Source: a virus
IMG/VR virus record: IMGVR_UViG_3300009159_000035
Reading direction: 5' to 3' (one strand)
Length of the DNA stretch: 64,000 nt
Part shown: positions 9,707 through 57,031 of the stretch, piece by piece
How positions within the stretch are numbered: position 1 is the stretch's first letter
Layout of the letters: each line of letters opens with the position of its first letter
Notes under the pieces: model-generated
Told to the model about the DNA's origin: nothing
Seen by the model: only the letters and a program-made list of their open reading frames with translations
Database searches by the model: none
Program-made: the position numbers and the translations under genes

Positions 9707-11542
9707 ATGGCATCTAATAAAGACATAGGAAAGAAGTATCAATTGCTAGACGAGATTGAACACGTACTAAAAAGACCCGGCATGTATATTGGTTCTACTA
9801 AACCTCATACCGGAAATGAATGGATCCTAGAAGATGGAGTCTATGAAAAATATGAACTCACATATAACCCAGGTTTTCTTAAGTTGTTTGATGAGATCAT
9901 TTCAAATTCAGTTGATGAGCATAAGCGATCAGGTAAAATCAATACAATTAAAGTAACTACTACCCTAGACACTATTACCATTTGGGATAATGGCGGAATC
10001 CCAGTAGTTCAACATCCTGAACATAAGGTTTGGATTCCTGAATTAATTTTTGCTAATCTTAGAGCTGGTTCAAATTTTAATGACGATGAAGGTCGTACTG
10101 TTGCAGGTACAAATGGAGTAGGTGCATCGCTGGTTAATATATTCTCAAAGAAGTTTGTTATTGATACAGCGGATGGTAAGAATCGTTTGCTACAAACATT
10201 TACCAATAACATGGCAAACCGAACCCCTGCCAAAATTAGTCGCAGCAGCCAAGGTTTTACTGAGATTACGTATGTTCCAGATCTGGCCAGATTTGAAATG
10301 AAAGAGATTAATGCAAGCAATTGGAAGATGATGCGTAAACGTGTTATTGATATTGCTGCCGCAAATCCAGGTCTTAAATTAGAATTCAATGGGGAAAAGT
10401 TTAAGTTTAAAACATTTAAAGAATACGTTGATCTTTATGTAAAGGATTCAATTTGGGAAAAGTCAAAAGACTGGGAATTTGCAATGGGAGTTTCAAAAGA
10501 AGGTTTTCAATCTATTTCATTTGTTAATTCAATTCAAACCAAAGACGGCGGAACTCATGAAGCTTATATCTTAAATCAAGTCATTGAGTACTTACGTATC
10601 ATGATTAAGAAAAAACATAAGGTTGAAGTTAAACCTTCTGAAATAAAAAACCATCTATTTCTTTTTATAAATTGTACAGTCTTAAATCCAGCGTTCTCTT
10701 CCCAAACTAAAGAGAAGTTAATTACTGAACCTAAAGATTTTGGTACAAAACATGATGTAACTGAAAAATTTGCAAAAGCGGTATTTACGTCAGAAGTAAT
10801 TCAGTCTCTACTAGATTGGATTGAACAAAAGAAAAATGCAGATGAGAGAGCTGAACTTCGTAAATTAAATAAGTCTCTTGCAAATACTAAAGTCCTAAAG
10901 CTAATTGATGCAAAAGGTAAGGACCGTAACAAATGTGTTCTTGGAATATTTGAAGGTATGTCTGCTCTATCAGCAGTTCGTAAATTTAGAGATCCTCAAA
11001 GCTTTGGAGCATTTCCATTAAAGGGTAAGTTCCTAAATGTAAGTGAGATGACAAACTCTGGAGTTATACAGAATGACGAGGTTGTTCAGTTGATGGCTTC
11101 ATTAGGAATTAAGTTAGGCGAAGAACCCAAGGATCTTAGATACGGCAAGGTCTACATCTACACTGATGCAGACCCAGACGGAGACTCAATTGCTGCTCTC
11201 CTAATAAACTTCTTTAATAAGTATTGGCCAGAACTATTTGATCAAGGTCGAATATTTAAAGTAATGACTCCACTTGTTGTTGCAAAGAAAGGTAAAGAAG
11301 TAAAGCCATTCTATTCAAATGAAGAATATTCTGCATGGGAAAAGAAAGCCGGCTCAAAGGGTTGGGATGTTGAATATAAGAAAGGACTTGCTGCTCTTGA
11401 AGATGTTGAGTACCGAGATATTATACACAGCCCAGTTCTGGTTAAACTTCAAAATGATAAGTTATATAAAGACAGTCTTAGTGATTGGTTTGGTTCTGAC
11501 TCTGAACCTCGTAAAGAAAAACTTCTTAAGCTTTCAATATAA
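9707..11542 (+). CDS. type II DNA topoisomerase large subunit (GyrB-like, T4 gp39+gp60)
   Basis: EHVLKRPGMYIGS, DEIISNSVDE, DNGGIP, GTNGVG, PLKGK, DADPDG, YKKGL. Confidence 0.95.
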   Translation: MASNKDIGKKYQLLDEIEHVLKRPGMYIGSTKPHTGNEWILEDGVYEKYELTYNPGFLKLFDEIISNSVDEHKRSGKINTIKVTTTLDTITIWDNGGIPVVQHPEHKVWIPELIFANLRAGSNFNDDEGRTVAGTNGVGASLVNIFSKKFVIDTADGKNRLLQTFTNNMANRTPAKISRSSQGFTEITYVPDLARFEMKEINASNWKMMRKRVIDIAAANPGLKLEFNGEKFKFKTFKEYVDLYVKDSIWEKSKDWEFAMGVSKEGFQSISFVNSIQTKDGGTHEAYILNQVIEYLRIMIKKKHKVEVKPSEIKNHLFLFINCTVLNPAFSSQTKEKLITEPKDFGTKHDVTEKFAKAVFTSEVIQSLLDWIEQKKNADERAELRKLNKSLANTKVLKLIDAKGKDRNKCVLGIFEGMSALSAVRKFRDPQSFGAFPLKGKFLNVSEMTNSGVIQNDEVVQLMASLGIKLGEEPKDLRYGKVYIYTDADPDGDSIAALLINFFNKYWPELFDQGRIFKVMTPLVVAKKGKEVKPFYSNEEYSAWEKKAGSKGWDVEYKKGLAALEDVEYRDIIHSPVLVKLQNDKLYKDSLSDWFGSDSEPRKEKLLKLSI

Positions 11543-11922
11543 TGACAGATAACAAAACCTTAATCCTTGCAGAGTTTGAACAGCTTAAAGGCCAATTCGT
11601 AATCAATGCCAGCTGGGAAATTGAAAGACTTGTAGCAGTTGGTGAAGACGATATGGACTACTACTGGATAACCTATAATGGCCGAAAACTAAAATGGAAT
11701 ACTTGTGTCGGGCGCATCATGCCGCTTAAAGGCCATTTACAAAATAAAGATTATTCAGAATTAATTAGAATAGCTAAGCTAAATCATTACGATCAGGTCA
11801 CTCTTTGGGGTAATAAAGAACCTGAGAAATTTCAGACAGCCTGTGACGAACACATTAAAGAAGTTTTAACTTTACCAGAAGACCACCGTTTTTTAACTGA
11901 GGTCTATATGGAACTAAATTAG
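11542..11922 (+). CDS. hypothetical protein between topoisomerase subunits
   Basis: 126-aa ORF, TAATG-coupled. Confidence 0.7.
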   Translation: MTDNKTLILAEFEQLKGQFVINASWEIERLVAVGEDDMDYYWITYNGRKLKWNTCVGRIMPLKGHLQNKDYSELIRIAKLNHYDQVTLWGNKEPEKFQTACDEHIKEVLTLPEDHRFLTEVYMELN

Positions 11923-11936
11923 TATATTAATAAAGC

Positions 11937-13298
11937 ATGAATCAACTACAAAATAAAACAGTTACTGAGTATCTTGACCAGGACTATGCAATGTACGGCA
12001 TGTACACGTTAGAGAGTAGAGCAATTCCATCTGTGATTGATGGTTTTAAACCTACTGCTCGTAAAATTATCTACATTGCAGATAAAGTTTGGAAATCAGG
12101 TAATGAGAAACCCTTAAAGATATTTCAATTAGGCGGACGTATTGCAGCTGATGCACATTACCACCATGGCGATGGATCCTTAAATGGTGCAATTATTGGA
12201 ATGGCTCAATCATTTAAGAACTCGTTACCTCTACTTGAAGAACTTGGTCAATTTGGTTCGCTTCGATCTCCTGAAGCTGGAGCTGCTCGTTATATTTCAA
12301 CCAAATTAACTTCAAACTTTAGATTATTATATAAAGACTTTGAACTATTAGAAAATCAGGTTGAAGAAGGCAATACAATTGAACCTAAATATTTCTTACC
12401 AGTTATTCCAACTGTCCTATTAAATGGAAGTTCAGGTATTGCTGTAGGTTTTGCAACCAATATTCTTAATCGTAATCCACTTGACCTAGTTGATGCTTGT
12501 GTTAAAGTGCTTGATGGTAAAAAGGTTGGCAAATTACTTCCATGGTGGAAAGAATATTCTGGCCCAGTTGAGTCGGTTGCTGGTACCAATCAATATGTAA
12601 TGCGTGGAGTATACGAGATTCAAAATACAACTACGGTTAACATTACAGAGTTACCGCCATCAATGACCTTTCAAAAATACGAAGTATATCTTAACTCTTT
12701 AGTAGATAGAGGAATTGTTTATTCGTATGAAGACAATTCAACTAACGGCATTAATTATACAATTAAATTTGCACGAGCAACCCTAGCTGATCTTATTGCA
12801 AAGGGCAAGCTTGATCAAACCCTTAAAATGGTTGAGACTGAAACTGAGAACTTAACGTGTTTAAATGAACGAGGTAAATTAATAATCTTTGAAGAGGTTT
12901 CTCAAGTTGTAGAATACTTTGTAACTTTCAGATTAAGTTTCTATTCAAAGCGAAAAGCTTTCCTAATTAATAAGTACACTGACGAACTTAAATATCTTTC
13001 AAACCGAGCACGCTTTGTAAAACTTATAGTGGATGAAAAATTAAAGGTTAATAATGTTCCACGAAAAGAAATAGTAGAATACCTGCAAGCAAATGGATTT
13101 GACGAAGTGAATGGGTCTTACAGTTACTTACTAAACATGCCAATTCATTCCTTAACCAAAGAAACCTATGAGCAATTATTAAAAGAGGTTGCGGATAAGA
13201 AAATTGAATTGGCTGAAATTAAAAAATTAGAACCAATTGATATGTACAGAACAGATTTAACTGATCTTAAAAAGAATTTAAAAACAACACTAAAATAA
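11937..13298 (+). CDS. type II DNA topoisomerase medium subunit (GyrA-like, T4 gp52)
   Basis: RAIPSVIDGFKP, YHHGD, AARY, NGSSGIAVGF. Confidence 0.95.
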   Translation: MNQLQNKTVTEYLDQDYAMYGMYTLESRAIPSVIDGFKPTARKIIYIADKVWKSGNEKPLKIFQLGGRIAADAHYHHGDGSLNGAIIGMAQSFKNSLPLLEELGQFGSLRSPEAGAARYISTKLTSNFRLLYKDFELLENQVEEGNTIEPKYFLPVIPTVLLNGSSGIAVGFATNILNRNPLDLVDACVKVLDGKKVGKLLPWWKEYSGPVESVAGTNQYVMRGVYEIQNTTTVNITELPPSMTFQKYEVYLNSLVDRGIVYSYEDNSTNGINYTIKFARATLADLIAKGKLDQTLKMVETETENLTCLNERGKLIIFEEVSQVVEYFVTFRLSFYSKRKAFLINKYTDELKYLSNRARFVKLIVDEKLKVNNVPRKEIVEYLQANGFDEVNGSYSYLLNMPIHSLTKETYEQLLKEVADKKIELAEIKKLEPIDMYRTDLTDLKKNLKTTLK

Positions 13299-18346: not shown

Positions 18347-19300
18347 ATGGCTGACCTAATTATAATTACCGCATTTTGTCCAACTGAAGAACAGGAAAGT
18401 GCACTAGACCGGTGTATTGAGTCAGTGCTAAAATGCGGATTCCATATTGCTTTAATATCACATACTCATATTCCAATTCACATACAAAAAAAATGTAATT
18501 ATTATGTTTATGATTATTTGAATGATGTTTCGGATGAGGTTGATTTGTTAGGCCATGAGTATTTTATATTTGACAATTCAAGAATTCAATCTAGATTTTT
18601 TAATAAAACTTTTTATGGATTTGCAATTTACCGAATGTTTTCAATTGCAAGTCAACTTGCAATAAACTTTGGATATGATAATATACATCATATTGAATAT
18701 GATTGCGAACTATTAGATAAGTATCTTATTCTTGAAAACTCTAAACTGCTTGAAACTTATGACTCGATTATTTATACTGATAGTGGAAATGAAGATGGAA
18801 TGTTGTTTGGTTCTTTTAAGTCATTTAAAGTAAAATCATTACCTGATAAATTTAAAAACTATGATCGTGATTTTATTGAAATAGAAATTAAAAAAGCGCA
18901 ACCGTCTAGGCTTGAATATTTAACAAAAGATCTTTTCATAAATTCAGGAAAGGTTTTATTTGGACCTGAACCGTCAGTCAATCGATTTAAAAGAGGTGCT
19001 ACTTTCTATAATAGAAATTTACATCATACTTTATATTACAGTGAACAGGATCAGAATTTACATTTATTTTATAAATCAGTAACTAATGTAAGTGAACTGA
19101 TTTGCGTAATCATAAACAACAGTCAAGTAATAATGATTGAGGTTTTACCTAATACTTGGAGCATACGACATTTGGGCCTGTTCGATGAAATTAATCATGT
19201 TAGAATTGATAACTCTGCAAAAATCATTTATCAAAAATCATTTGACTCACAAGACAAAGAACTTTTTAAAATTAAATCATATCTACTAGAAGTTAAATGA
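18347..19300 (+). CDS. hypothetical protein, possibly glycosyltransferase-like
   Basis: HIEYDC DxD-like motif; first gene of sugar-modification operon. Confidence 0.45.
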   Translation: MADLIIITAFCPTEEQESALDRCIESVLKCGFHIALISHTHIPIHIQKKCNYYVYDYLNDVSDEVDLLGHEYFIFDNSRIQSRFFNKTFYGFAIYRMFSIASQLAINFGYDNIHHIEYDCELLDKYLILENSKLLETYDSIIYTDSGNEDGMLFGSFKSFKVKSLPDKFKNYDRDFIEIEIKKAQPSRLEYLTKDLFINSGKVLFGPEPSVNRFKRGATFYNRNLHHTLYYSEQDQNLHLFYKSVTNVSELICVIINNSQVIMIEVLPNTWSIRHLGLFDEINHVRIDNSAKIIYQKSFDSQDKELFKIKSYLLEVK

Positions 19301-20124
19301 AAAAAATAATTAATTTTACACCAACTGGTACTCAAACAACCAGAACCAATTCATTAGCTCCATTAATACCAAATGAAATAATTGATTCCGTTCATGAAGC
19401 AAATGAGATTGGTATATCTATTGTTCATTTACATGCCAGGGATGAGGTTACATTAGAGAATACATACAAGAAAGAAATATATCAAAAGATTATAGAGGGG
19501 ATAAAGAAATATTGTCCTGACCTACTAATCTGTGTATCTCTTACGGGAAGAAACTTTCCTGAATTAGAGAAAAGATCTGAGGTATTACAGCTATTACCTG
19601 ACATGGGTTCATTAACAATGTCATCATTAAACTTTCCGTCTGGTGCATCAGTTAACCAACCTAATATGATTTTATCATTGATTGATGAGATGGATAAGTA
19701 TGGGGTACAACCTGAGATAGAATGTTTTGACGCAGGTATGTTAAACTATACAAATTACATTATTTCAAAGAACATATTAATGCCACCATATCATATAAAC
19801 ATCATACTAGGAAACATGTACAATGGTCAATGTGATTTGGGTACCTTATCAACAATCAAAAACAATCTACCATCAAACTCATTCACCTGTTTGGGTGGAA
19901 TAGGTTCACAACAACTAAAGAGTACAACATACGGGTTATTAGATTTTGATGGTGTTAGAATCGGGTTGGAAGATAATCTATATTACAAAGGTAAGGAAAA
20001 AACGACAAACATGATGTTATTAAAACGTATTCATAGGATAATGAATGAGTTGGACATGAAACACTATACATCAAATGAATTAAAAGAAAAAGGATATGGC
20101 AACAAAGTTACTAATATTAGGTAA
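19297..20124 (+). CDS. beta-keto acid cleavage enzyme (BKACE/DUF849)
   Basis: IINFTPTG, IVHLHARD, GSLN-like SSLNF, PEIECFD, RIGLEDN. Confidence 0.9.
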   Translation: MKKIINFTPTGTQTTRTNSLAPLIPNEIIDSVHEANEIGISIVHLHARDEVTLENTYKKEIYQKIIEGIKKYCPDLLICVSLTGRNFPELEKRSEVLQLLPDMGSLTMSSLNFPSGASVNQPNMILSLIDEMDKYGVQPEIECFDAGMLNYTNYIISKNILMPPYHINIILGNMYNGQCDLGTLSTIKNNLPSNSFTCLGGIGSQQLKSTTYGLLDFDGVRIGLEDNLYYKGKEKTTNMMLLKRIHRIMNELDMKHYTSNELKEKGYGNKVTNIR

Positions 20125-23377: not shown

Positions 23378-23449
23378 AGCGGGTTAGAGCAGTGGTAGCT
23401 CGCGAGCCTCATAAGCTCGAGGTCGGGGGTTCAAATCCCTCACCCGCAA
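23378..23449 (+). tRNA. tRNA-Met(CAU), initiator-like
   Basis: AGCGGGT/ACCCGCA with 1:72 mismatch; loop CT-CAT-AA; stem CGAGC/GCTCG. Confidence 0.9.
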
Positions 23450-23505
23450 CCGTGACTATTTTGGCATTTGTACTTAGATAAATAAATTAAAAGTATAAAT
23501 CTAAA

Positions 23506-24138
23506 ATGTCAAAACAGCATAAGTACAACTACATTTATAAGACAACTTGTAGTATGACTGGCAAATACTATATAGGAATGCACTCAACGTTCAACTTAGA
23601 AGATGGGTACATCGGAAGCGGAAGAAGATTATGGTTGTCTATTAATAAACATGGTAAGGAAAATCATTCTATCCAAATTTTAGAATGGTTACCTGATCGA
23701 AGTTCTTTGAAATTAAGAGAGCGAGAATTAGTTAATGAGGAATTATTAAATGATTCAATGTGCATGAATTTGCAACTAGGAGGCGGCGGAGGATTTACCG
23801 GAGGTGAGCATGCTCAAAAATTCCATAAAGCCGGTAGGCTTGCTACAAATAAGGTCCTTCATGATAGACTTCAGAATGATGTTGATTATCGAAAAAGATT
23901 TTGTGAGTCAGTTAGCAACTCGAAGAAAGGAAATCAATTTTGGCTAAATAAAAAACACACTAAAGAGACTAAGCTGAAAATTGGAGAAGCTAATTCAATA
24001 AAACAATTGGGAATTGCTAATTCTCAATACGGAACATGTTGGATAACTGACGGTTTCGAAAACAAAAAAATAAAGAAAACCGAAGATCTTCCACAAGGTT
24101 GGTCTTACGGTAGAAAGACCCGGATCCATGCAAGTTGA
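23506..24138 (+). CDS. GIY-YIG homing endonuclease (Seg-like, NUMOD3-like segment)
   Basis: YIYKTT..YYIGMH..YIGSG; KHTKETKLKIG. Confidence 0.85.
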   Translation: MSKQHKYNYIYKTTCSMTGKYYIGMHSTFNLEDGYIGSGRRLWLSINKHGKENHSIQILEWLPDRSSLKLRERELVNEELLNDSMCMNLQLGGGGGFTGGEHAQKFHKAGRLATNKVLHDRLQNDVDYRKRFCESVSNSKKGNQFWLNKKHTKETKLKIGEANSIKQLGIANSQYGTCWITDGFENKKIKKTEDLPQGWSYGRKTRIHAS

Positions 24139-27038: not shown

Positions 27039-27908
27039 ATGAGTACTACTCCATTTGCATATAATCCTGGACATTCTACTATTGCTGGAACAACCAATTT
27101 AGTTGATTTAGCAATAGGCACAACCGCTCAACACTATGGAGCTAATCCTGGAGGTTTGACTTGGTGGATGGGACCTGAAGATATAACTGGTTATCTAATT
27201 TGCAGGCCAGTACCTGCTGGAAATCAGCCAACTCAAATGGGTGCAATTGGAACAGTCAGATTTGCTAGAAGCACAGCTAAAACTGATCAATCATTTTTGG
27301 AACTAGCCAATTATATCAAAAGAGATTTAGGCGGATCCCCTAACCTGGCTAGTGCATCAGCTGCTCTTACGTGGTTAACCGATAATGGCTATTGGACTTC
27401 ATGGGTTCAACCATATATTGCAGGTTTATATAAAACAACATACAATGGATATTTTGCCGATTCGGTTAGTTTCTTTGCAACTGCAACTCCACAAGCTTTT
27501 TTAAACAATCCAATAACTGAAGTCCAAACAACATCTATTTTTGAACCAGCAACGGATGATGGGTCAGATTTTAGTTGCCAATGGTTGGGGTATTTTAAAC
27601 CAGCTACTTCTGAAACTTATACATTTTATACATCAAGTGATGATGCATCGTATATGTGGATCGGTGCAAATGCTCAAACTGGTTTTACGACAGCCAATGC
27701 AACGGTTAACAATGGTGGATTGCATGGAACAACTGAAAAATCGGGATCAATTACATTAACTGCCGGCGTTTATTATCCAGTTAGAATTCAATTTGGCGAA
27801 CGCGGTGGTGGAGATGTGTTAACCTTTAATTACTCAACTCCGACTATCTCTAAAACGACTAATGTTACTGGATTAGTTTTCTATAATTCAACAACTAATA
27901 ATTTTTAA
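27039..27908 (+). CDS. virion-surface candidate with PA14/GLEYA domain
   Basis: FSCQWLGYF..YTFYTSSDDASY..YYPVRIQFGE. Confidence 0.8.
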   Translation: MSTTPFAYNPGHSTIAGTTNLVDLAIGTTAQHYGANPGGLTWWMGPEDITGYLICRPVPAGNQPTQMGAIGTVRFARSTAKTDQSFLELANYIKRDLGGSPNLASASAALTWLTDNGYWTSWVQPYIAGLYKTTYNGYFADSVSFFATATPQAFLNNPITEVQTTSIFEPATDDGSDFSCQWLGYFKPATSETYTFYTSSDDASYMWIGANAQTGFTTANATVNNGGLHGTTEKSGSITLTAGVYYPVRIQFGERGGGDVLTFNYSTPTISKTTNVTGLVFYNSTTNNF

Positions 27909-27923
27909 AAATAAAATATTATA

Positions 27924-29084
27924 ATGGCTAGTACAAAACCATTTTCTAGAAATCCATCACATACTGCAATTTCAGGGGTAACCAATCTTGGAGATATTGC
28001 AATAGGAACCTCTGCTCAAAACTATTCAGCTAATCCAGGCGGATTAACTTGGTGGATGGGGCCAGACGAATCAACTGGCTATGTGATTGGTGCACCAGTT
28101 GCTCTAGAAAATCAATCAACTCCAATTGGATCAGTAGGAAATGTTCAATTTTGGAGAACCAATTCCTTAAGCGATTCTGAATTTCTTTCATTAGCCAATT
28201 ATGTTAAACGGACATTCGGTGGAGCTGCTGATTTAGCAACTGCAACAGATGCTAATGTATGGTTAGCTGCAAACAATTACTATACAAACTGGACTTTGCC
28301 AGCAACTACAACTACTACGACGGCCGCGCCAACTACAACTACAACAACGGCAGAGCCAACTACAACTACAACAACGGCAGCGCCGACTATAATAACCTCT
28401 GGCCTTATTTTAAATTATGATATTAGTAAGCCGGCCTCATACTCAGGCAGTGGAACTACTATAACTGACTTACAGGGAAATTCCAATGCAACAACCGTTA
28501 ATAGCCCAACGTATACTTCTTCTGGAGGTGGCTACTTAACATTTAACGGAAGCAATCAATACTTTGTTACTAACACCTCATTAAATTCTAAATTATCACC
28601 AGCCAATACGTCAACCGTATTATCAATATTTGTTTGGGTATATCCTATGGATAATGGTGTTATAGTAGCAGAATTAGGACAGGCAACGGCAAATACCTTA
28701 TGGCATGATTCTCAAATCGAAATGGTTGCTGGAACAATTAAATTTTCTGTTTGGAGCGGTGTTGTACAAAACTTATCATCATCTATTTCAACGCCTTTAA
28801 ATAACTGGTATTATGTTGGGTTCACTTATGACGGAACAAATTTAAGAGGATATGTTAATGGTTCATTGGCTGTAACTTCCGGTACAATAACCAGACAAAC
28901 TCCTTATAACAACGGAGGCGGCGTAGGACTGCACTATGCAGTAGCTTCAGAGGATCTTACAAAGCTTGGAGATGGCTCGTATGCTAACATGAGATTTGGT
29001 GGAATGCAAATCTACAATACGGCATTAACTGGCAACAACGTGTTGACTAATTTTAACGCAACTAAATCAACCTACGGTCTGTAA
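27924..29084 (+). CDS. virion-surface candidate with Thr-rich linker and LamG-like domain
   Basis: N-terminal domain shared with 27039; SYSGSGTT; WYYVGFTYDG..YVNG; IYNTALT. Confidence 0.8.
   Translation: MASTKPFSRNPSHTAISGVTNLGDIAIGTSAQNYSANPGGLTWWMGPDESTGYVIGAPVALENQSTPIGSVGNVQFWRTNSLSDSEFLSLANYVKRTFGGAADLATATDANVWLAANNYYTNWTLPATTTTTTAAPTTTTTTAEPTTTTTTAAPTIITSGLILNYDISKPASYSGSGTTITDLQGNSNATTVNSPTYTSSGGGYLTFNGSNQYFVTNTSLNSKLSPANTSTVLSIFVWVYPMDNGVIVAELGQATANTLWHDSQIEMVAGTIKFSVWSGVVQNLSSSISTPLNNWYYVGFTYDGTNLRGYVNGSLAVTSGTITRQTPYNNGGGVGLHYAVASEDLTKLGDGSYANMRFGGMQIYNTALTGNNVLTNFNATKSTYGL
28304..28384 (+). repeat. 3 x 27-bp tandem repeat encoding TTTTTTA(A/E)P
   Basis: AACTACAACTACAACAACGGCAG(A/C)GCC-type units. 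Confidence 0.85.
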
Positions 29085-33941: not shown

Positions 33942-35087
33942 ATGGAAAACAACGACTCAGTTTGCTATGTAGCAAGAATTAACGAAATTAGGCCCATTGA
34001 TGGTGCAGACAACATTGAATTAGCAATTGTTGGAGGATGGAATTGTATTACTAAAAAAGGAGAGTATAATGCTGGCGATTTAATTGTAGTTGCTACAACT
34101 GATGCAGTCATTCCACAAGAATTATCAGACGTAATGAACGTGACCAATTACCTACGCAAAGGTCAACGAGTACGTACTGTAAAATTACGTGGAGTTTACT
34201 CTGAATGTTTAATTATTCCTTTTGCTTATTGTAAAGATGGTGCTAAATTAGCCAATACCAAATGGAACGAAGGAGAAGATATGATGTTGTTCTTGGGTAT
34301 TTTTAAGTACGAACCTCCAATTAAACAGATAAGACTATCTTCTGGTAAAAAGATTCGCTATCAAGATAACCCTAATTTCCATGTTTACTACAAGTTTCCT
34401 AACTTGAAGAATGTAGCTGGGATGTTTACTGAAGAGGATATGGTAGAAATTACTCGTAAAATCCACGGAACAAATGCTCGTTATGGTATTGTAAAGAAAA
34501 CTAAATTAGCAGTTTGGGACAAAGTTAAAAAATTCTTTGGATTGGCTGATAAATGGATTGATTATGAATTTGTAGTTGGGTCTCATAATGTTGAAAAGGG
34601 TTCTGACTCTCAAGGTTTTTACGATACAAATGTTTGGTACCAAATTTCGGACAAATATGAAATCAAAAAGAAGTTATGGGAATATGTTAAGAGCGTTGCA
34701 ATGGAACCTGAAATTGGAGCTGGTATTACAATCTATGGAGAAATTTATGGAGTCGGAATTCAAAAAAATTATGAATATGGGCTAAAGGAAATTGAATTTG
34801 TTGGCTTTGATGTCAAAGAGAATGGCGAATACTTAAGTCCAATCAATTCTAAACTTTTAATAAAGCATATTTTAGACTTACCATACGTTGAGATCCTATA
34901 TTCAGGTAATTGGTCTCAGGCAGTTCAAGATAAATTTGTATTTAATAATTTTATTGCAGGCACTAAAGTACCAGAAGAAGGAATTGTAATTAAGTACCAT
35001 ACTGGAGAAAGAAGTAAAGTTGCAAAAGTAATCAACCCTGACTATTTGATCTATGGCGAGAAACACGATATTGGAGACTCACACTAA
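33942..35087 (+). CDS. RNA ligase, DRB0094-like with N-terminal OB domain
   Basis: IRPIDGADNIE; KLRGVYSE; KIHGTN; YGEIYG; FDV; EEGIVIK; AKVIN. Confidence 0.9.
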   Translation: MENNDSVCYVARINEIRPIDGADNIELAIVGGWNCITKKGEYNAGDLIVVATTDAVIPQELSDVMNVTNYLRKGQRVRTVKLRGVYSECLIIPFAYCKDGAKLANTKWNEGEDMMLFLGIFKYEPPIKQIRLSSGKKIRYQDNPNFHVYYKFPNLKNVAGMFTEEDMVEITRKIHGTNARYGIVKKTKLAVWDKVKKFFGLADKWIDYEFVVGSHNVEKGSDSQGFYDTNVWYQISDKYEIKKKLWEYVKSVAMEPEIGAGITIYGEIYGVGIQKNYEYGLKEIEFVGFDVKENGEYLSPINSKLLIKHILDLPYVEILYSGNWSQAVQDKFVFNNFIAGTKVPEEGIVIKYHTGERSKVAKVINPDYLIYGEKHDIGDSH

Positions 35088-45539: not shown

Positions 45540-47102
45540 ATGAGTAAAATTATTAAATCATATCCAGAGTTTTTAGCTGAAAACTTAAACCAAAATGAAG
45601 GATTTAGGGATATTGCAAAAAAGGCAGTAGGCTCAATTAAAAAATTCTTTGGAAATGGCGCAAACTATTTAACCGCACTAGCTGCCCAAATTAGTGGAAA
45701 GCAGTCAAATGATGGTGCTGATGATACAATTCCATATGGTGTAACAATTTACCCAGCAGCATCTGATTTACAAGAAATTGGAGCAGATAATAATTACTCG
45801 CCGGAAGGGCTTGATGAAAATTTAATAGATGAAGAAGCTGTTCCATTAGAAGCTGGCGAAAGTATTGGTGGAGTTAGAAATGTTGACTATGATGGTTTAA
45901 TGAGAATTGTTAAACGAATTGCAAATAATCCAGATAAAGGAGAAGAAGCACCACTTATGATTTGGGGAGCTCCCGGTATTGGTAAAACTGCAATTGTTAA
46001 ACAGGTTCAAAAAATGCTAGGCGGTAGAATGATTGATGTTCAATTAACTACGTATGCACCAGAAGATTTCTTTTTACCAGTAGTTGATCCAGCAACTAAT
46101 GACAATATAATGAGTCGTAGAGCTTCAAGGGTTCCACAAAAATGGTTACCTGTATATAATGAAAGTGAAGGAGACGAAGGTAATACAAAAGCAAATGGCC
46201 CAGACGGAATGGGTGGAATGATATTTATGGATGAGTTATCCAGAGCATCTGAAGCAATTAGAAATATTGCCCTAAAATTTGTATTAGACAGAGAATTAGA
46301 CGGAGGTTGGAAATTAGGAAGCAAATGGACAATATTTGCAGCGTCTAACCGTCAAGAAGATGATTTAACAAATTCTCAAGATTTTGGTACCGCATTAGGT
46401 AATCGTTTTCAACAGGTAAATTACGTGCCAGATACTAAGACTTATGGAAAATATGCATCAGCTCAAACTGATTCAAGTGGAGTTGATACATTTGACCCAC
46501 TTATTATATCATTCTTACAATGGTCTAAAGGTAAAGAATTTTTTCATAAAATGGATGCAAGAGCGGTTGCCTTTCCTAGTCCAAGATCTTGGGAAAAAGC
46601 TGCAATTGCTTGGAAAAATTTGAAAAAAGAAGCAGAGGCAGAAGGTTATCAATTAAGTGATAAAATGATTGAAGATGAAGCTCTAGCTCCAAATGTTGGA
46701 ACTGAAGCAGCTACTGCATTTATTGCATACTATCTTTTATCTAAGAAAATTGACTTAAAGAATCTTTATAAAGTTTATACTGAGCCAGATAATGCACCAC
46801 TTCCATCAAAAACCAGAAATGATGATTATGAATTGGACGTTGCATACATCTTAGCTTCAGCAATTGCATATGAGCATAGAGGTAAAAAATTAGATAATAC
46901 TGAAATTGAAAATGTAGCTAAATATGCAATTCGAATTAATAATCCAACTGTTGCAATGCAAATAATGGGTGCACTAATTGAAATTCACCCATACTTAAAG
47001 ACTTCCGGTACTCCAGAATTTGAAGCTTATCGTATTGCAATGAGACCGTTTTTAGCAGCATATCCGGGTTCAGCAAAGGATATTCAAAATTTAGAAAACT
47101 AA
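45540..47102 (+). CDS. MoxR-type AAA+ ATPase with CTS-like N-terminal extension
   Basis: MSKIIKSYPEFLAE; GAPGIGKT; IFMDE; AASN; ALGNRF; PSPRSWE. Confidence 0.85.
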   Translation: MSKIIKSYPEFLAENLNQNEGFRDIAKKAVGSIKKFFGNGANYLTALAAQISGKQSNDGADDTIPYGVTIYPAASDLQEIGADNNYSPEGLDENLIDEEAVPLEAGESIGGVRNVDYDGLMRIVKRIANNPDKGEEAPLMIWGAPGIGKTAIVKQVQKMLGGRMIDVQLTTYAPEDFFLPVVDPATNDNIMSRRASRVPQKWLPVYNESEGDEGNTKANGPDGMGGMIFMDELSRASEAIRNIALKFVLDRELDGGWKLGSKWTIFAASNRQEDDLTNSQDFGTALGNRFQQVNYVPDTKTYGKYASAQTDSSGVDTFDPLIISFLQWSKGKEFFHKMDARAVAFPSPRSWEKAAIAWKNLKKEAEAEGYQLSDKMIEDEALAPNVGTEAATAFIAYYLLSKKIDLKNLYKVYTEPDNAPLPSKTRNDDYELDVAYILASAIAYEHRGKKLDNTEIENVAKYAIRINNPTVAMQIMGALIEIHPYLKTSGTPEFEAYRIAMRPFLAAYPGSAKDIQNLEN

Positions 47103-47103
47103 A

Positions 47104-47859
47104 ATGAAGAAATTATTGGATTGGAATGATTATCATAAGTATGCAGATTTTACAAAGTCTGACTTGATACTTGAGGCAGAAGAGTCTGATCCAGTGTTAA
47201 AGAAGGTAAAAATAAAAGTAGATTATGCAATTAGAAAAGTTGCAGTTAAATATAAATTTTTTGCCGATCTTACTTATAAGTTAAGAATTATCTACACTAG
47301 ACAGATTAAAACCGCAGCCGTTGATGGAACAAATATGTTTATTAATCCAGACTTTTTTGAACCGCTAACTGAAGATCAAATTGTATTTATTGTATGTCAT
47401 GAAGTTATGCACTGTGCACTATTTCATTTTGCACGTATTCAAGGTAGAGATGGATATCGCTGGAATATTGCTGGCGACTATGAAATAAACTGGTTATTAT
47501 CAGAAGATGGAATTCTATCATATGACGAGATTAAGAATACTTTACGCGGTATGATTGAAAAATCCTATGCTGGTAAAAATGCTGAACAGTTATACGAAGA
47601 TCCGGAAATGATAGTTCCACCAAAGGAAGAAGATCAAGAACAAGACACTACTGCTGGAGGTCAACAAGACGGAGATCCTCCTCCGGGTGGTGGAGGTAAA
47701 AAACCCAAAGAGGGCTTATTTCCTGGCAATATTATATACGACAAATCTAGCGGATCTTATGGTAAAGTTAATTCAATTGATAAAACAACTGGTGAAGTTG
47801 ATTTTTCACCATTAAGCAAACAAGAAGCTGAAATTGAATTGAAAAAACTTAAAGCTTAA
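47104..47859 (+). CDS. DUF2201 N-terminal-like metallopeptidase
   Basis: TAAVDG..NPDF; HEVMH; WNIAGDYEIN. Confidence 0.85.
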   Translation: MKKLLDWNDYHKYADFTKSDLILEAEESDPVLKKVKIKVDYAIRKVAVKYKFFADLTYKLRIIYTRQIKTAAVDGTNMFINPDFFEPLTEDQIVFIVCHEVMHCALFHFARIQGRDGYRWNIAGDYEINWLLSEDGILSYDEIKNTLRGMIEKSYAGKNAEQLYEDPEMIVPPKEEDQEQDTTAGGQQDGDPPPGGGGKKPKEGLFPGNIIYDKSSGSYGKVNSIDKTTGEVDFSPLSKQEAEIELKKLKA

Positions 47860-47863
47860 TAAT

Positions 47864-49015
47864 ATGAAAACAAACTTATCTAATATAGTTAAATTAGTAA
47901 ATCCGAATGGTGCAAAAGGCGGAGGCAAAGGAGAAAGTGGAGAAGAATCAACTGATAATGGTATTGAAACTAAGACCTTAGAGAAACCTGAAGAATTAGG
48001 CGGTGGTACTGGAGAAGAAGAAGAAGAAGGTAAAGAAGAAGAAGGTAAAGAAGAAGAAGAAAAAGAAGGTTCTGGAAAAGGTAAAGGTAAACCTGGAAAA
48101 GAAAAAGGCAAAGGCTCAGGTGAAGGCGAATCTGAAGGAGATGGGCCAATGGTAGATGCAGATGATATTAATAATATTGAATCAAATAAAAATGTTGTTG
48201 TTCGAAATGATGTCCGTGCAGGAAAAGGCCAAGGTAAAGTAGTTGGACGAGGCACAGGCGAAGTTATTTCACCAGCTGAAGGTAATCGTATTGCTAAATC
48301 AGAAGGATATGATGAGCGTAGCCCACGTACAGAAGAGGAATGGAAGAAGGATGCAAGAACATCGGCTCAAACAAATCTTTCTAAACGAACCAAAAACATT
48401 GGTAGCGGAGCAGGAGCAATATATCAAAGGATTATGGAGCTTACTGATCCAATTGTAGATTGGCGAGCTGAATTACGTAGATTTATAGGTAAACTTGCAA
48501 GTTCATCAGATTTTAAATTTCCAGCACGAAGATCAATTGGGTCAGGTGATTATCGCTATGGTATTAAATCCAAAAATAATGCTCTGGAAAATGGAATAAT
48601 TGCAATTGACGTAAGTGGATCAATTGCATCGGCTTTTCCAGAACTATTAGCTGAGGTTGTTGGAATTGCAAGCGCAAAGAAAATAAAGGAAATATCAGTT
48701 TTACCATGGAATGATAGAGTAGTTACTCCAGTAATATTTAAAAATTTTAAAAAACCAACCCCAGTTGATTTTGAAAAGGTTTCAACTGGTGGAGGTTCAA
48801 ATGGAATGCCGGATGTTATGCGCTGGATTCAGAATAATGTAAAAGATCGCCCAGACTTTGTAGTTATTATAACGGATGGATTTATTCCAACTCTACCTAC
48901 TGCTCCTAAATGGGGTAGGAAAACCATTTGGCTAATATTTGATAATAACTCATTTGATGTACCTGCCGGTTGGGGTCAAGTTATTCATGCAAAAGGCGAT
49001 GAACGCTATAAATAA
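47864..49015 (+). CDS. vWA-domain protein (DUF2201 C-terminal-like) with E/G/K-rich linker
   Basis: VDWRAELRRF; IDVSGS; GGGS; IITDG; GAA repeats at 48014-48070. Confidence 0.85.
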   Translation: MKTNLSNIVKLVNPNGAKGGGKGESGEESTDNGIETKTLEKPEELGGGTGEEEEEGKEEEGKEEEEKEGSGKGKGKPGKEKGKGSGEGESEGDGPMVDADDINNIESNKNVVVRNDVRAGKGQGKVVGRGTGEVISPAEGNRIAKSEGYDERSPRTEEEWKKDARTSAQTNLSKRTKNIGSGAGAIYQRIMELTDPIVDWRAELRRFIGKLASSSDFKFPARRSIGSGDYRYGIKSKNNALENGIIAIDVSGSIASAFPELLAEVVGIASAKKIKEISVLPWNDRVVTPVIFKNFKKPTPVDFEKVSTGGGSNGMPDVMRWIQNNVKDRPDFVVIITDGFIPTLPTAPKWGRKTIWLIFDNNSFDVPAGWGQVIHAKGDERYK

Positions 49016-49045
49016 AAACTTTTTAACTAATTAGAGTTAAATAAT

Positions 49046-49067
49046 ACTGGAAACATAGAGCCTCGCT
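49046..49067 (+). repeat. inverted repeat, left arm
   Basis: ACTGGAAACATAGAGCCTCGCT pairs with 49906-49928. Confidence 0.8.
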
Positions 49068-49146
49068 CTGTTTGTCTCGGGTTTACGAGCCCTTGAGTAA
49101 TCAATAGAAGGTTACAATGAGATAAGCATAAAATAACACAACTCTT

Positions 49147-49893
49147 ATGTACCAACAAAACATCACAACTAGTGGGTCTACTGCAGTTTACACAAGCTTC
49201 AGTAATCCACAACCATCTGCAACAATCACAAAAGGCAGAGGAAGACTAAAAACCTACGGGTCAAATGTCTATTTAAAAGACGGTTCAAATTTCGAAATTG
49301 AACTCTACAATCCAAAAACAACATCAGTATTAGCAAAAATCTGGGTCAATGGTCAAGTACTATCGGCTGCCGGTATTGTGATAAGACCTGGGCAAAGGGT
49401 CTATCTGGAAAGATTCATTGATGTTGCTAAAAAATTCAAGTTTACAACATATGAGGTTGATGACTCTAGCCAAACCAAATTAGCAATTGCAAATAATGGT
49501 AAGGTTGAAGTTCTGTTCTATGATGAATCTATTTCATATCAACCTCCGGTAATGCTTTATGGTAATACAATTACAACCAATTACTATAATCAACCTAGCA
49601 CGTTAACTGTTGGCGGAAGCGCTGGCGTCTTTACCTGCAGCTCAAGCATTTCAGCTAACTCAGTTGAGACGGGTATTGTTGAAAAAGGCGGAAGTTCTAA
49701 ACAGCAATTTTCTAATACCTATGGTAATTTTAACTCATGGACTTGTGCAACCAGTACCTGGCAAATTTTACCAGAAAGTAAAAAACCCGTTGAAATGGGA
49801 GAAATTCGCTCCTATTGCACAGGCTGTGGAACCCGCCATAAAAAAGCAACTTGGAAATTCTGCCCTAATTGTGGAATTCCAGTAACTGAATAA
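49147..49893 (+). CDS. beta-rich protein with C-terminal zinc ribbon
   Basis: VYLKDGSNFEIELYNP; YLERF; CTGC..CPNC. Confidence 0.75.
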   Translation: MYQQNITTSGSTAVYTSFSNPQPSATITKGRGRLKTYGSNVYLKDGSNFEIELYNPKTTSVLAKIWVNGQVLSAAGIVIRPGQRVYLERFIDVAKKFKFTTYEVDDSSQTKLAIANNGKVEVLFYDESISYQPPVMLYGNTITTNYYNQPSTLTVGGSAGVFTCSSSISANSVETGIVEKGGSSKQQFSNTYGNFNSWTCATSTWQILPESKKPVEMGEIRSYCTGCGTRHKKATWKFCPNCGIPVTE

Positions 49894-49905
49894 CAATTAG
49901 TCCTA

Positions 49906-49928
49906 AGCGAGGCTCTATTTGTTCCAGT
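49906..49928 (+). repeat. inverted repeat, right arm
   Basis: AGCGAGGCTCTATTTGTTCCAGT: 13-bp plus 7-bp perfect complement to left arm. Confidence 0.8.
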
Positions 49929-49962
49929 TTGCAAGATAAATAAACTTAAATTATTTAATAAA

Positions 49963-50247
49963 ATGGAAACAAGTCATAGTAAAATTTTAAGCTTTGAAGA
50001 ATTTACTCAATCAAATACTAATCAAGAAATGGAAATGCCTATGGGTATGGGCAATGGATCACAAGATTCACAAGAAATGACTGCTGAATTACCGCTAGGT
50101 AACAATAATGAACCAGTACCAGCTAAATCTCCTGAAAATGGAGAAACTGATCATGCTCTTTCTATGAATATGATGACTGATACTGAGCCTAAGATTGAAG
50201 TTGAGCCAAGTGAAAAAGAAGCTGGCGCAGAAGACTCTACTCTTTAA
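49963..50247 (+). CDS. acidic disordered late protein (CTS-like leader)
   Basis: SKILSFEEF. Confidence 0.55.
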   Translation: METSHSKILSFEEFTQSNTNQEMEMPMGMGNGSQDSQEMTAELPLGNNNEPVPAKSPENGETDHALSMNMMTDTEPKIEVEPSEKEAGAEDSTL

Positions 50248-50667: not shown

Positions 50668-50688
50668 CGGTTCTTTATTTTTTTTTTG

Positions 50689-50717
50689 AAAAGTCCCAAT
50701 TTGTTGGGACTTTTTTT
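50689..50717 (+). terminator. intrinsic terminator
   Basis: AAAAGTCCCAA..TTGGGACTTTT. Confidence 0.85.
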
Positions 50718-55051: not shown

Positions 55052-57031
55052 ATGGCAAAACAGAATAGCAAAACCGGCAAAACACCAATGCTTGATTCAT
55101 TTGGTAAAGATCTTACTCAACTTGCCTTAGAGGGTAAATTAGATCCAGTAGTTGGCAGAGAGAAAGAAATACGTAGATGCAGTCAAATATTGGCTAGGCG
55201 AAAGAAAAATAATCCTCTCTTAATTGGAGAACCTGGAGTAGGTAAAACTGCAATTGTTGAAGGTCTTGCTACCATGATTATTGATAAAACCTGTCCAAGA
55301 GTTCTATTTGATAAAAAAATAGTAACACTTGAATTAGCAAATTTGGTAGCAGGTACCAAATATAGAGGTCAGTTTGAAGAGCGCATGGAACAAATAATAG
55401 AAGAGGTTCAGGTAAATCCAAACGTTATTCTATTTATTGATGAAATTCATACCTTAATTGGAGCAGGTTCAGCAAGTGGATCACTAGATGCAGCAAATAT
55501 CCTAAAGCCAGCTTTGAGTCGTGGAGAAATTCAGTGTATTGGTGCAACAACAATAGATGAGTTTAGAGGATCAATTGAAAAAGATGGTGCTCTTAGCCGC
55601 CGATTTCAACAGGTTATAGTAAATCCATCTACACTAGAACAGTCACGTCAGATCATTGAAAATATCCGATCTAAATACGAAGATCATCATTCAGTTAAGT
55701 ATACTGATGAGGCCTTAGATGCATGTGTTGCATATAGTGACCGATATTTACAGGACAGATTTTTACCAGATAAAGCAATTGACTTAATGGACGAAGCTGG
55801 GGCAGCAGTCCATATCAATGGAGTAGTTGTGCCAGACGCAATTAAGAAATTAGAAGAGAAATTTGTTGAGGTAAGTGCTAAAAAACAAAAAGCAGTTGAG
55901 GCACAACAATACGAAGCGGCAGCAAAACTTAGAGATGATGCTCTTAAAGTAATGAAAGATATTGATGATGAAAAGATTCAATGGGAAGAGTCATTAAAAA
56001 TTAATAGGTTAACTGTATCAGAAGAAGATATTGCAAATGTTGTTGCAATTATGACAGGCATACCAGTTACCCGACTAAAGGGCTCTGAACTTGAAAGATT
56101 AGCAACAATGGCTAAATGGTTAAAGGAAAGAGTTATTGGGCAGTCTGAAGCAGTTTCTAAATTAACTAAAGCAATTCAGCGCTCAAGAGCAGGTCTTAAA
56201 GCTAAAAATCGCCCAATTGGTACATTCATGTTTCTAGGTCCAACTGGAGTTGGTAAAACTGAATTAGCTAAACAGTTAGCAAAATTTCTGTTTGATACAG
56301 AAGACTCCCTAATCAGAATTGATATGACTGAATTTGGAGAAAAATTTACAGCATCAAAATTAATAGGAGCTCCTCCAGGCTATGTTGGATATGAAGAAGG
56401 CGGGCAGTTAACCGAAAAAGTAAAACGTAAACCTTATTCAGTTATCCTACTAGATGAAGTTGAGAAAGCCCATCCAGATATTTTCCATACCTTATTACAA
56501 GTGTTAGACGAAGGCCATATGACTGATGGTCTTGGCCGAAAAATAGATTTTAAGAATACTGTAATTATTATGACTTCAAATTTGGGAGTTAAGGAATTAC
56601 AAGATTTCGGTGGAGGTATTGGATTCTCATCGTCAACTCCATTTGAACAACAAAAAGAATTGGCGTCAGGTATTTTAAGAAAAGCGGTTAGTAAACAGTT
56701 TGCACCAGAATTTATTAATCGACTAGATGATATTATTATATTTGAGTCCCTAAAGAAAGAGGATGTTGCTCAAATAATCGAAGTTGAATTGTTAGATCTT
56801 TATTCAAGAGTAAAAGAAAATGGTTATACTGTTGAATTAACAAAGTCCGCAAAAGAATTCTTAATTGAAGCAGGTTATGATCATAAATTTGGAGCTCGTC
56901 CATTAAAAAGAGCTATTCAAACTCATGTTGAAGATCTTATAGCTGAAGCATATATTGACGGTAAAATTAAAGATGGAGATCACTTAGTGATTAACCATAA
57001 GGCTAAAGATACAAAGTTAACTATTAAATAA
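55052..57031 (+). CDS. clpC: ClpC-like Hsp100 ATPase lacking the N-terminal Clp repeat domain
   Basis: Two NBDs (GEPGVGKT, GPTGVGKT); UVR-type linker; GIGF ClpP-docking loop; begins at KTPMLDSFG. Confidence 0.9.
   Translation: MAKQNSKTGKTPMLDSFGKDLTQLALEGKLDPVVGREKEIRRCSQILARRKKNNPLLIGEPGVGKTAIVEGLATMIIDKTCPRVLFDKKIVTLELANLVAGTKYRGQFEERMEQIIEEVQVNPNVILFIDEIHTLIGAGSASGSLDAANILKPALSRGEIQCIGATTIDEFRGSIEKDGALSRRFQQVIVNPSTLEQSRQIIENIRSKYEDHHSVKYTDEALDACVAYSDRYLQDRFLPDKAIDLMDEAGAAVHINGVVVPDAIKKLEEKFVEVSAKKQKAVEAQQYEAAAKLRDDALKVMKDIDDEKIQWEESLKINRLTVSEEDIANVVAIMTGIPVTRLKGSELERLATMAKWLKERVIGQSEAVSKLTKAIQRSRAGLKAKNRPIGTFMFLGPTGVGKTELAKQLAKFLFDTEDSLIRIDMTEFGEKFTASKLIGAPPGYVGYEEGGQLTEKVKRKPYSVILLDEVEKAHPDIFHTLLQVLDEGHMTDGLGRKIDFKNTVIIMTSNLGVKELQDFGGGIGFSSSTPFEQQKELASGILRKAVSKQFAPEFINRLDDIIIFESLKKEDVAQIIEVELLDLYSRVKENGYTVELTKSAKEFLIEAGYDHKFGARPLKRAIQTHVEDLIAEAYIDGKIKDGDHLVINHKAKDTKLTIK

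Follow-up and report, generated by a model that had tools for sequence, protein, structure and literature searches.

Covarying complementary arms point to an RNA helix joining the ends of a conserved mRNA in very large phages of Bacteroidota

The mRNA for a conserved viral protein of 248 aa appears, from the comparison of homologous loci, to carry a selected RNA helix that joins its two ends. This helix, named P1 here, is formed by one arm located immediately upstream of a structured leader and another arm located shortly after the stop codon, and the complementarity of the arms is kept although their sequences turn over. Both P1 and the leader, which is predicted to fold into a three-way junction, were found in a 64-kb stretch of viral DNA (hereafter, the window) and were followed in 62 distinct homologous loci, designated by numbers such as L019 below. 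The window belongs to a record of 66.6 kb, which is estimated to represent 25% of a genome. Features of the locus are summarized in Table 1.

Table 1. Sequence and predicted RNA features around the P1 gene (positions in the window)
Feature	Position	Strand	Remarks
Late-promoter-like box TTAAATAA	49037-49044	+	Adjoins 5′ arm with a gap of one base; putative promoter
P1 5′ arm, outer	49046-49052	+	7 nt; partner 49922-49928
P1 5′ arm, inner	49055-49067	+	13 nt; partner 49906-49918
Alternative local hairpin	49057-49069	+	5 bp, 3-nt loop; uses part of 5′ arm and excludes P1
Three-way-junction leader	49070-49127	+	Predicted from folds, covariation, RNAalifold and covariance model R1
P2	49070-78 with 49119-27	+	Encloses P3 and P4
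P3	49079-83 with 49088-92	+	Leader helix
P4	49097-102 with 49110-15	+	Leader helix
A-rich unpaired spacer	49128-49146	+	Before start codon; no Shine-Dalgarno sequence; unpaired in both folds
Gene for 248-aa protein	49147-49893	+	Predicted Ig-like beta sandwich, disordered loop and zinc ribbon
P1 3′ arm, inner	49906-49918	+	Partner 49055-49067
P1 3′ arm, outer	49922-49928	+	Partner 49046-49052
Late-promoter-like box of next gene	49934-49945	+	Next ATG at 49963

In the window, P1 consists of a 7-bp helix and a perfect 13-bp helix with a 2x3 internal loop between them, and the 838 nt between its arms contain one gene and its leader of ~100 nt. The right arm begins 12 nt downstream of the TAA stop codon (49891-49893). 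An earlier, sequence-only reading of this DNA had described an inverted repeat of 20 bp with one internal loop and a spacing of ~840 nt, whose right arm lies 12 nt past the stop codon and whose left arm lies just past TTAAATAA; its letters, coordinates and placement were all verified in the sequence. The 13-mer of the inner arm has no further copies in the window beyond the two arms. Perfect 13-mer inverted pairs separated by 2 kb or less are found seven times in the window, against 5.5 +/- 2.7 expected from first-order Markov resamples, and the 13-bp core alone, in a single genome, is at chance level and not significant. The P1 core has the highest G+C content among these seven pairs and is also extended by 7 bp. 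When the 5′ and 3′ flanks of 91 gene-like ORFs in the window were hybridized in silico, the P1 gene gave the strongest duplex (-35.3 kcal/mol, z = -3.4), which is a moderate outlier only; no other end-paired gene was found among these ORFs, the runners-up giving only patchy and non-specific duplexes. In the fold of the full-length mRNA, both in the minimum-energy and the centroid structures, P1 and the three-way junction are present together. The alternative hairpin in Table 1 appears in a leader fold computed with the 3′ end left out, and it is also kept in L056, where the 3′ arm is lost.

Because these window-only statistics are weak, the case for P1 depends on its relatives. Flanks were compared between the 28 nt upstream of P2 plus the first 2 nt of P2 on one side and the 50 nt past the stop codon on the other. 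A strong 5′/3′ duplex was found at the matching position in ~52 of the 62 loci: its 5′ arm ends 0-6 nt before P2, and its 3′ arm starts 0-26 nt (median 8) past the stop codon, within 0-12 nt in most loci. The arms belong to at least 14 unrelated sequence types, some of which have a short G+C-rich core in common with the window, while others are wholly different, such as those of L019 (11-nt pair) and L108 (22-nt pair). When 19 lineages, five of them lacking the pairing, were represented by one locus each, the matched flanks summed to -357.9 kcal/mol versus -186 +/- 18 for permuted flanks, and none of 100,000 permutations was as good. Covariation of the arms across homologues had been named as a check in the sequence-only reading, and its proposal of an RNA helix closing the mRNA is borne out by the number of arm types, by this permutation result and by the position of the arms, one at the predicted transcript start and the other in the 3′ UTR. 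In 47 of the 62 loci, no other segment of the mRNA pairs better with the 5′ arm than the 3′ UTR does. Furthermore, four loci fetched later (L112, L113, L114, and L118) have paired arms as predicted, two of them with new sequences; L112 contains two new wobble pairs in P1, L113 a new two-part helix, and L114 and L118 further variants. In L118 (LR756500.1, a 462-kb phage), complementary blocks of 7 bp and 12 bp, at ~485-505 and ~1413-1440, link the 5′ end with the 3′ UTR in crossed order, and both can form together only as a pseudoknot.

Changes within the lineage of the window (11 sequences) show how the pairing is kept. The coding region has a mean column identity of 71%, and arms and leader are almost unchanged. 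In the pair tally by script, double changes in P1 convert A-U to G-C and C-G to U-A, and single-sided changes yield U.G or G.U on the sense strand. Two pairs of the outer helix are changed on both sides and several become G.U; the internal loop has a constant place with a variable sequence. At internal positions of all arm pairs, wobbles number 11 versus four A.C, and because this excess is small overall, strand-specific selection is clear only within the window lineage.

Since P1 is absent in five of the 19 lineages, it is dispensable. L056, L098, and the L086 group have a local 5′-end hairpin instead of P1, and L027 starts directly at P2. L022 and L023 retain an orphan 5′ arm, the matching 3′ arm of related lineages being missing. 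L022 also differs from L023 by a hairpin insertion of ~36 nt at ~2880-2920, located between the orphan 5′ arm and P2, with a stem of 9 bp and a promoter-like box in its loop.

The helices P2, P3, and P4 of the leader were obtained from folding of the leader alone and of the whole mRNA; two leader hairpins picked out in the sequence-only reading correspond to P3 and P2 of this predicted fold. Among 36 leaders covering all lineages, 89.5% of the cells are paired and double changes are seen in 19 of the 20 pairs, whereas slid partners are paired in 38-49% and no shuffle attains the observed values. RNAalifold, unprompted, gave the same three helices. A covariance model of the leader (R1) has one match each in the window and in its 66.6-kb record, and exactly one match, directly 5′ of the gene, in 62 of 62 distinct homologous loci. 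Outside these, it matches five of nine loci drawn from two further collections, among them two records of huge phages; in three Lak phage loci and L119 the leader was not detected with R1. A search of 48900-50100 against Rfam 15 at a permissive threshold returned chance matches only (E 0.3-4.5), far under the gathering scores. From these comparisons, the three-way-junction leader appears to be a previously undescribed conserved structure that is absent from Rfam. The spacer between junction and ATG is 17-33 nt long in relatives. Bacteroidota mRNAs are without Shine-Dalgarno sequences.

The stems of the leader vary while its junction bases stay fixed: U49093, A49096, and A49117 are each conserved in 59 of 59 rows, and G49095 in 58 of 59. 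The pattern fits that of a k-junction, a three-way junction with a third helix on the non-bulged strand and two conserved adenines (PMC10573300); this is a lead rather than a filing of the leader in that class, and the kinked three-dimensional fold of a k-junction would be putative here. Read in this way, P3 and P4 would correspond to the C and NC helices, with P2 as the extra helix of the non-bulged strand; the G1b position is G in 58/59 rows, and A2b and A1n are both A in 59/59. The extra helix on the non-bulged strand is shared with the k-junctions of TPP riboswitches and the DUF-3268 RNA (PMC4005666, PMC10573300). The tandem sheared G.A and A.G pairs that these have beside the NC helix may have a counterpart in the leader, in positions of that type with both adenines invariant. 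Unlike in a standard k-junction, the 2n position is more often A than G (A in 36 rows, G in 21, U in two), and the bulge, with two nucleotides (U, N) before the G, is 2 nt instead of three unless the last P3 pair opens. No match to the DUF3268 or TPP families was obtained in the Rfam search of the leader region.

A box equivalent to TTAAATAA is retained 5′ of the arm in related loci; in the window lineage, this T4-late-like box lies a few bases before the arm. In the window, [A/T]TAAATA is found 23-32 nt 5′ of the ATG in ~17 other genes, and ATAAATA is strand-biased, with 30 occurrences on the + strand versus 13 on the - strand. These boxes look like late promoters of the T4 type, and the leaders behind them are very short. 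Because of the short box-to-ATG spacing of the ~17 other genes, the leader of the P1 gene is unusually long, ~100 nt versus ~15-20 nt for the other late-type genes of the window. The sequence-only reading had already pointed to an unusually long, structured leader, and its fold is now seen to be conserved across loci. Distant lineages have a good -35/-10 pair 5′ of the arm, and the arm starts 6-7 nt past the -10 hexamer. Wherever such sigma-70-like promoters are visible, the 5′ arm would begin at the predicted +1, that is, with the putative first nucleotides of the transcript.

The downstream side of the locus differs among lineages. In eight lineage types, the 3′ arm is followed immediately by a canonical intrinsic terminator, and P1 is of -12.9 to -23.5 kcal/mol with 11-18 paired positions and 9-14 contiguous bp. 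Six types, including that of the window, have no terminator, and their P1 is of -28.6 to -33.3 kcal/mol with 17-23 paired positions. The separation of P1 strength by terminator status is complete (p = 0.0003, for types that are not fully independent). In five of the six terminator-less types, represented by L070, L065, L093, L108, and L013, a U run follows the G+C-rich 3′ arm; it is absent in the type of the window. The duplex program pairs U runs past the 3′ arm with A runs of the 5′ arm, which blurs the scoring of terminator-likeness. A scan of the window revealed no intrinsic terminator between the 3′ arm and the box at 49934-49945, nor any 5′ of the promoter box TTAAATAA, and the first terminator-like site on the + strand 3′ of the arm is at 50688-50715. 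With no terminator on either side, the arms in the window may sit inside read-through transcripts, which favours a processing role here.

The product of the enclosed gene is predicted by AlphaFold (pLDDT 81) to be an Ig-like beta sandwich with a C-terminal zinc ribbon (CxxC...CxxC) and a disordered loop at ~residues 140-168. More than 1,700 relatives of near length were found in a word-indexed search, and an exhaustive HMMER search gave 1,672 clusters at 50% identity, all labelled viral and none with a functional name (“hypothetical protein” only, in the protein atlas). Homologues are located on viral contigs of 116-350 kb and also in Bacteroidetes and Cytophagaceae metagenome bins, and Lak Prevotella megaphages and other phages of 460-640 kb have homologues at 29-47% identity; the P1 gene is common to very large phages of Bacteroidota. 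With the 248-aa protein as a query, PHROGs gave no match, Pfam gave sub-threshold zinc-ribbon matches only, and a profile search against PDB sequences gave zinc-ribbon fragments only. With the predicted fold, Foldseek found no match in the PDB, and a wide VIA-align structure search found generic Ig-like sandwiches only (Z about 6). In a BFVD/Foldseek search, the predicted fold resembles uncharacterised proteins of eukaryotic large DNA viruses, giant viruses included, at E values of the order of 1e-10 to 1e-4 (lowest 7e-10), namely of Pithovirus, Marseillevirus, nudiviruses, and baculoviruses, as well as iridovirus ICP-18, ISKNV ORF098, and WSSV wsv390. The homologues of Lak-C1, Lak-A1, and Lak-B4 (L115-L117) contain in-frame TAG codons close to their starts, and their reading frames are open only with TAG translated as sense. 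By eye, the same three leader helices are possible in their very A+T-rich upstream regions, which R1 missed; no convincing 5′-3′ pairing was seen by eye in the Lak loci.

Other genes of the window include one for a MoxR-like AAA ATPase (45540-47102), followed by a DUF2201 protein that is split into two ORFs 4 nt apart, a metallopeptidase part (47104-47859) and a VWA-like part (47864-49015), both matching one PHROG. The gene at 33942-35087 encodes a PHA02142 OB-fold domain and an RNA-ligase-family domain. Topoisomerase II subunits, a BKACE-family enzyme, a PA14/GLEYA protein, a laminin-G-like protein and a ClpB-like double AAA ATPase were assigned in the regions 9707-13298, 19297-20124, 27039-29084, and 55052-57031. 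The sequence at ~23414-23450, 5′ of the gene at 23506, resembles a T arm and 3′ end of a tRNA.

From the helix, its covariation, the structure of the leader and the placement of P1 with respect to the promoter, the leader, the stop codon and the terminator, we infer the transcript ends, a stabilization of the message and a possible binding site in the junction. Probably, though by no means surely, P1 serves for sequestration of the ends of the message together with their definition. P1 would pair the first nucleotides of the mRNA with the 3′ UTR and close a message of ~880 nt into a loop, and, lying beside the junction, it would hold the start and stop codons close together at the loop base. 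With the 5′ end sequestered and the 3′ end held, end-dependent ribonucleases could not begin decay. Where a lineage has no terminator of its own, as in the window, the longer P1 may in addition contribute to forming or marking the 3′ end. The common denominator across lineages seems to be a base-paired 5′ terminus, usually partnered by the 3′ UTR. A base-paired 5′ terminus is an arrangement known to slow end-dependent decay. With only 0-12 nt between stop codon and 3′ arm in most loci, part of P1 should be melted by ribosomes as they terminate, and such partial melting fits oddly with pure protection.

Processing by a ribonuclease has to be weighed against this role. Stalks for RNase III, as in 16S/23S rRNA and phage T7, are duplexes of ~20 bp, often with an internal loop, that bracket a mature RNA. 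P1 of the window resembles them, being a duplex of about 22 bp, or two helical turns, with an internal loop. By analogy, cleavage across P1 would excise a monocistronic mRNA with paired, stable ends from read-through late transcripts, and it is consistent with this that the window has no terminator on either side, that all of the six terminator-less types have 17-23 paired positions, and that the internal loop of the window lineage keeps its position while its sequence changes. However, the eight types with 9-14 contiguous bp have their own promoter and terminator and need no excision, and because many lineages have only such short helices, a stalk would not be the family-wide role. Excision, which we consider rather unlikely overall, is plausible only for the terminator-less lineages with 17-23 bp; for the window, it is a serious alternative and can coexist with end protection. 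In the terminator-less types with a U run straight after the G+C-rich 3′ arm, P1 may work as a split intrinsic terminator: the 5′ end of the mRNA, ~900 nt off, would provide the upstream strand of its hairpin. This idea is a long shot; if it is true, termination and end sealing would take place only when the 5′ end is intact and free, and P1 would be a built-in check that couples termination to the state of the 5′ end.

Instead of protecting the ends, P1 and the k-junction-like leader might form a platform for translational control, through protein binding or through re-initiation from stop to start, with the encoded zinc-ribbon protein or a ribosomal component as candidate binders. The junction bases (U, G, A ... 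A), fixed in 58-59 of 59 rows between covarying stems, would suit such a platform, and so would the constant company of leader and gene among the 62 loci, the short and conserved junction-ATG and stop-3′ arm spacings, and a leader of ~100 nt where other late-type genes have ~15-20 nt. On the other hand, the protein fold resembles generic Ig-like sandwiches only, the start region is unpaired in all folds with no obvious occlusion switch, and k-junctions are known only as architectural elements, no function beyond this having been reported so far (PMC10573300); a platform of this kind seems unlikely to us. At the DNA level, inverted repeats of 13-20 bp around a gene and downstream of a promoter resemble a gene-inverting switch, and the repeat might delimit an inverton, or else a recombination cassette or small mobile element with the gene as its cargo. 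This is very improbable, since 62 of 62 loci have one orientation relative to promoter and flanks, no direct repeat lies beside the arms in the window, the gene borders on one for a VWA protein and on small unknown ORFs, the arm sequences turn over with the pairing kept and with wobbles on the sense strand, a local 5′ hairpin substitutes for the repeat in some lineages, and the arm is fixed at the predicted +1. Two specific candidates were rejected: transposon or MITE ends, on the lack of a flanking direct repeat, arms that are unique in the window and a leader occurring once in the record; and an inverton, whose second orientation is absent among the 62 loci. The preference of the sequence-only reading for an RNA helix over transposon ends accordingly stands, with covarying arms, sense-strand wobbles and no target duplication. 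Lastly, P1 could hold processed ends for a phage RNA ligase and lead to circularization of the message, by analogy with the end-holding stems whose geometry ligases use, and the window does have an RNA-ligase-family gene (33942-35087). This is hardly to be expected, as the 5′ triphosphate of a primary transcript would first need processing and, in most lineages, a terminator hairpin and U tail after the 3′ arm would have to be removed.

End sequestration and definition by P1 have counterparts in known RNAs, among which the long-range interaction of the Bacillus subtilis hbs mRNA appears, by analogy, to be the closest system. The 5′ and 3′ UTRs of hbs interact over 14 nt, the 3′ segment directly preceding the terminator; as compensatory mutations demonstrate, this pairing keeps endonuclease cleavage in check and makes the transcript more stable (PMC5737220). 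P1 is likewise a short helix between the 5′ UTR and 3′ UTR of a small monocistronic mRNA with a structured leader, and in eight lineage types its 3′ arm is just upstream of a terminator. The 5′ segment of hbs lies inside the leader, downstream of hairpin 2, whereas the P1 arm is at the predicted +1; the k-junction-like element of the P1 family is absent from hbs; and P1 is family-wide in phages, with over a dozen arm sequences and some 20-bp helices without a terminator. In Staphylococcus aureus, the icaR mRNA is described as pairing its 3′ UTR with its own 5′ UTR (PMC3868564). P1 also joins the 3′ UTR and 5′ UTR of one mRNA. In icaR, the pairing reportedly masks the ribosome-binding site, so that translation is repressed, and attracts RNase III; unlike this case, the start region of the P1 mRNA stays unpaired. 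Full-length type I toxin mRNAs of the hok family have a fold-back inhibition element through which their 5′ and 3′ ends are paired, and these systems are characterized by toxic peptides of ~50 aa, an antisense RNA and 3′ trimming for activation. The sequence-only reading had likened P1 to type I toxin mRNAs, and this kinship did not hold: the product is a conserved, soluble-looking protein of 248 aa, not a small hydrophobic toxic peptide, and no antisense partner was seen, a consensus scan giving no convincing promoter-terminator unit on the minus strand. The likeness is one of geometry only. Complementary 5′ and 3′ sequences are also described as closing flavivirus genomes into pseudo-circles (PMC7999817); P1 similarly joins 5′ and 3′ sequences of a viral RNA, whereas flavivirus cyclization serves replication of an RNA genome in eukaryotic cells and P1 is on the mRNA of a DNA phage.

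Experimental cases of end pairing in bacterial-type mRNAs have so far been a few single genes (hbs, icaR, hok), and with P1, end pairing would be a trait of a whole gene family, kept up by evolution in very large phages of Bacteroidota. The leader accompanying it is a new candidate family of k-junction RNAs, absent from Rfam, and the 248-aa protein would represent an abundant, uncharacterised viral fold that also seems to occur in large DNA viruses of eukaryotes. The arm types of P1 provide a ready set of variants in which end pairing may be related to mRNA decay, termination and translation.
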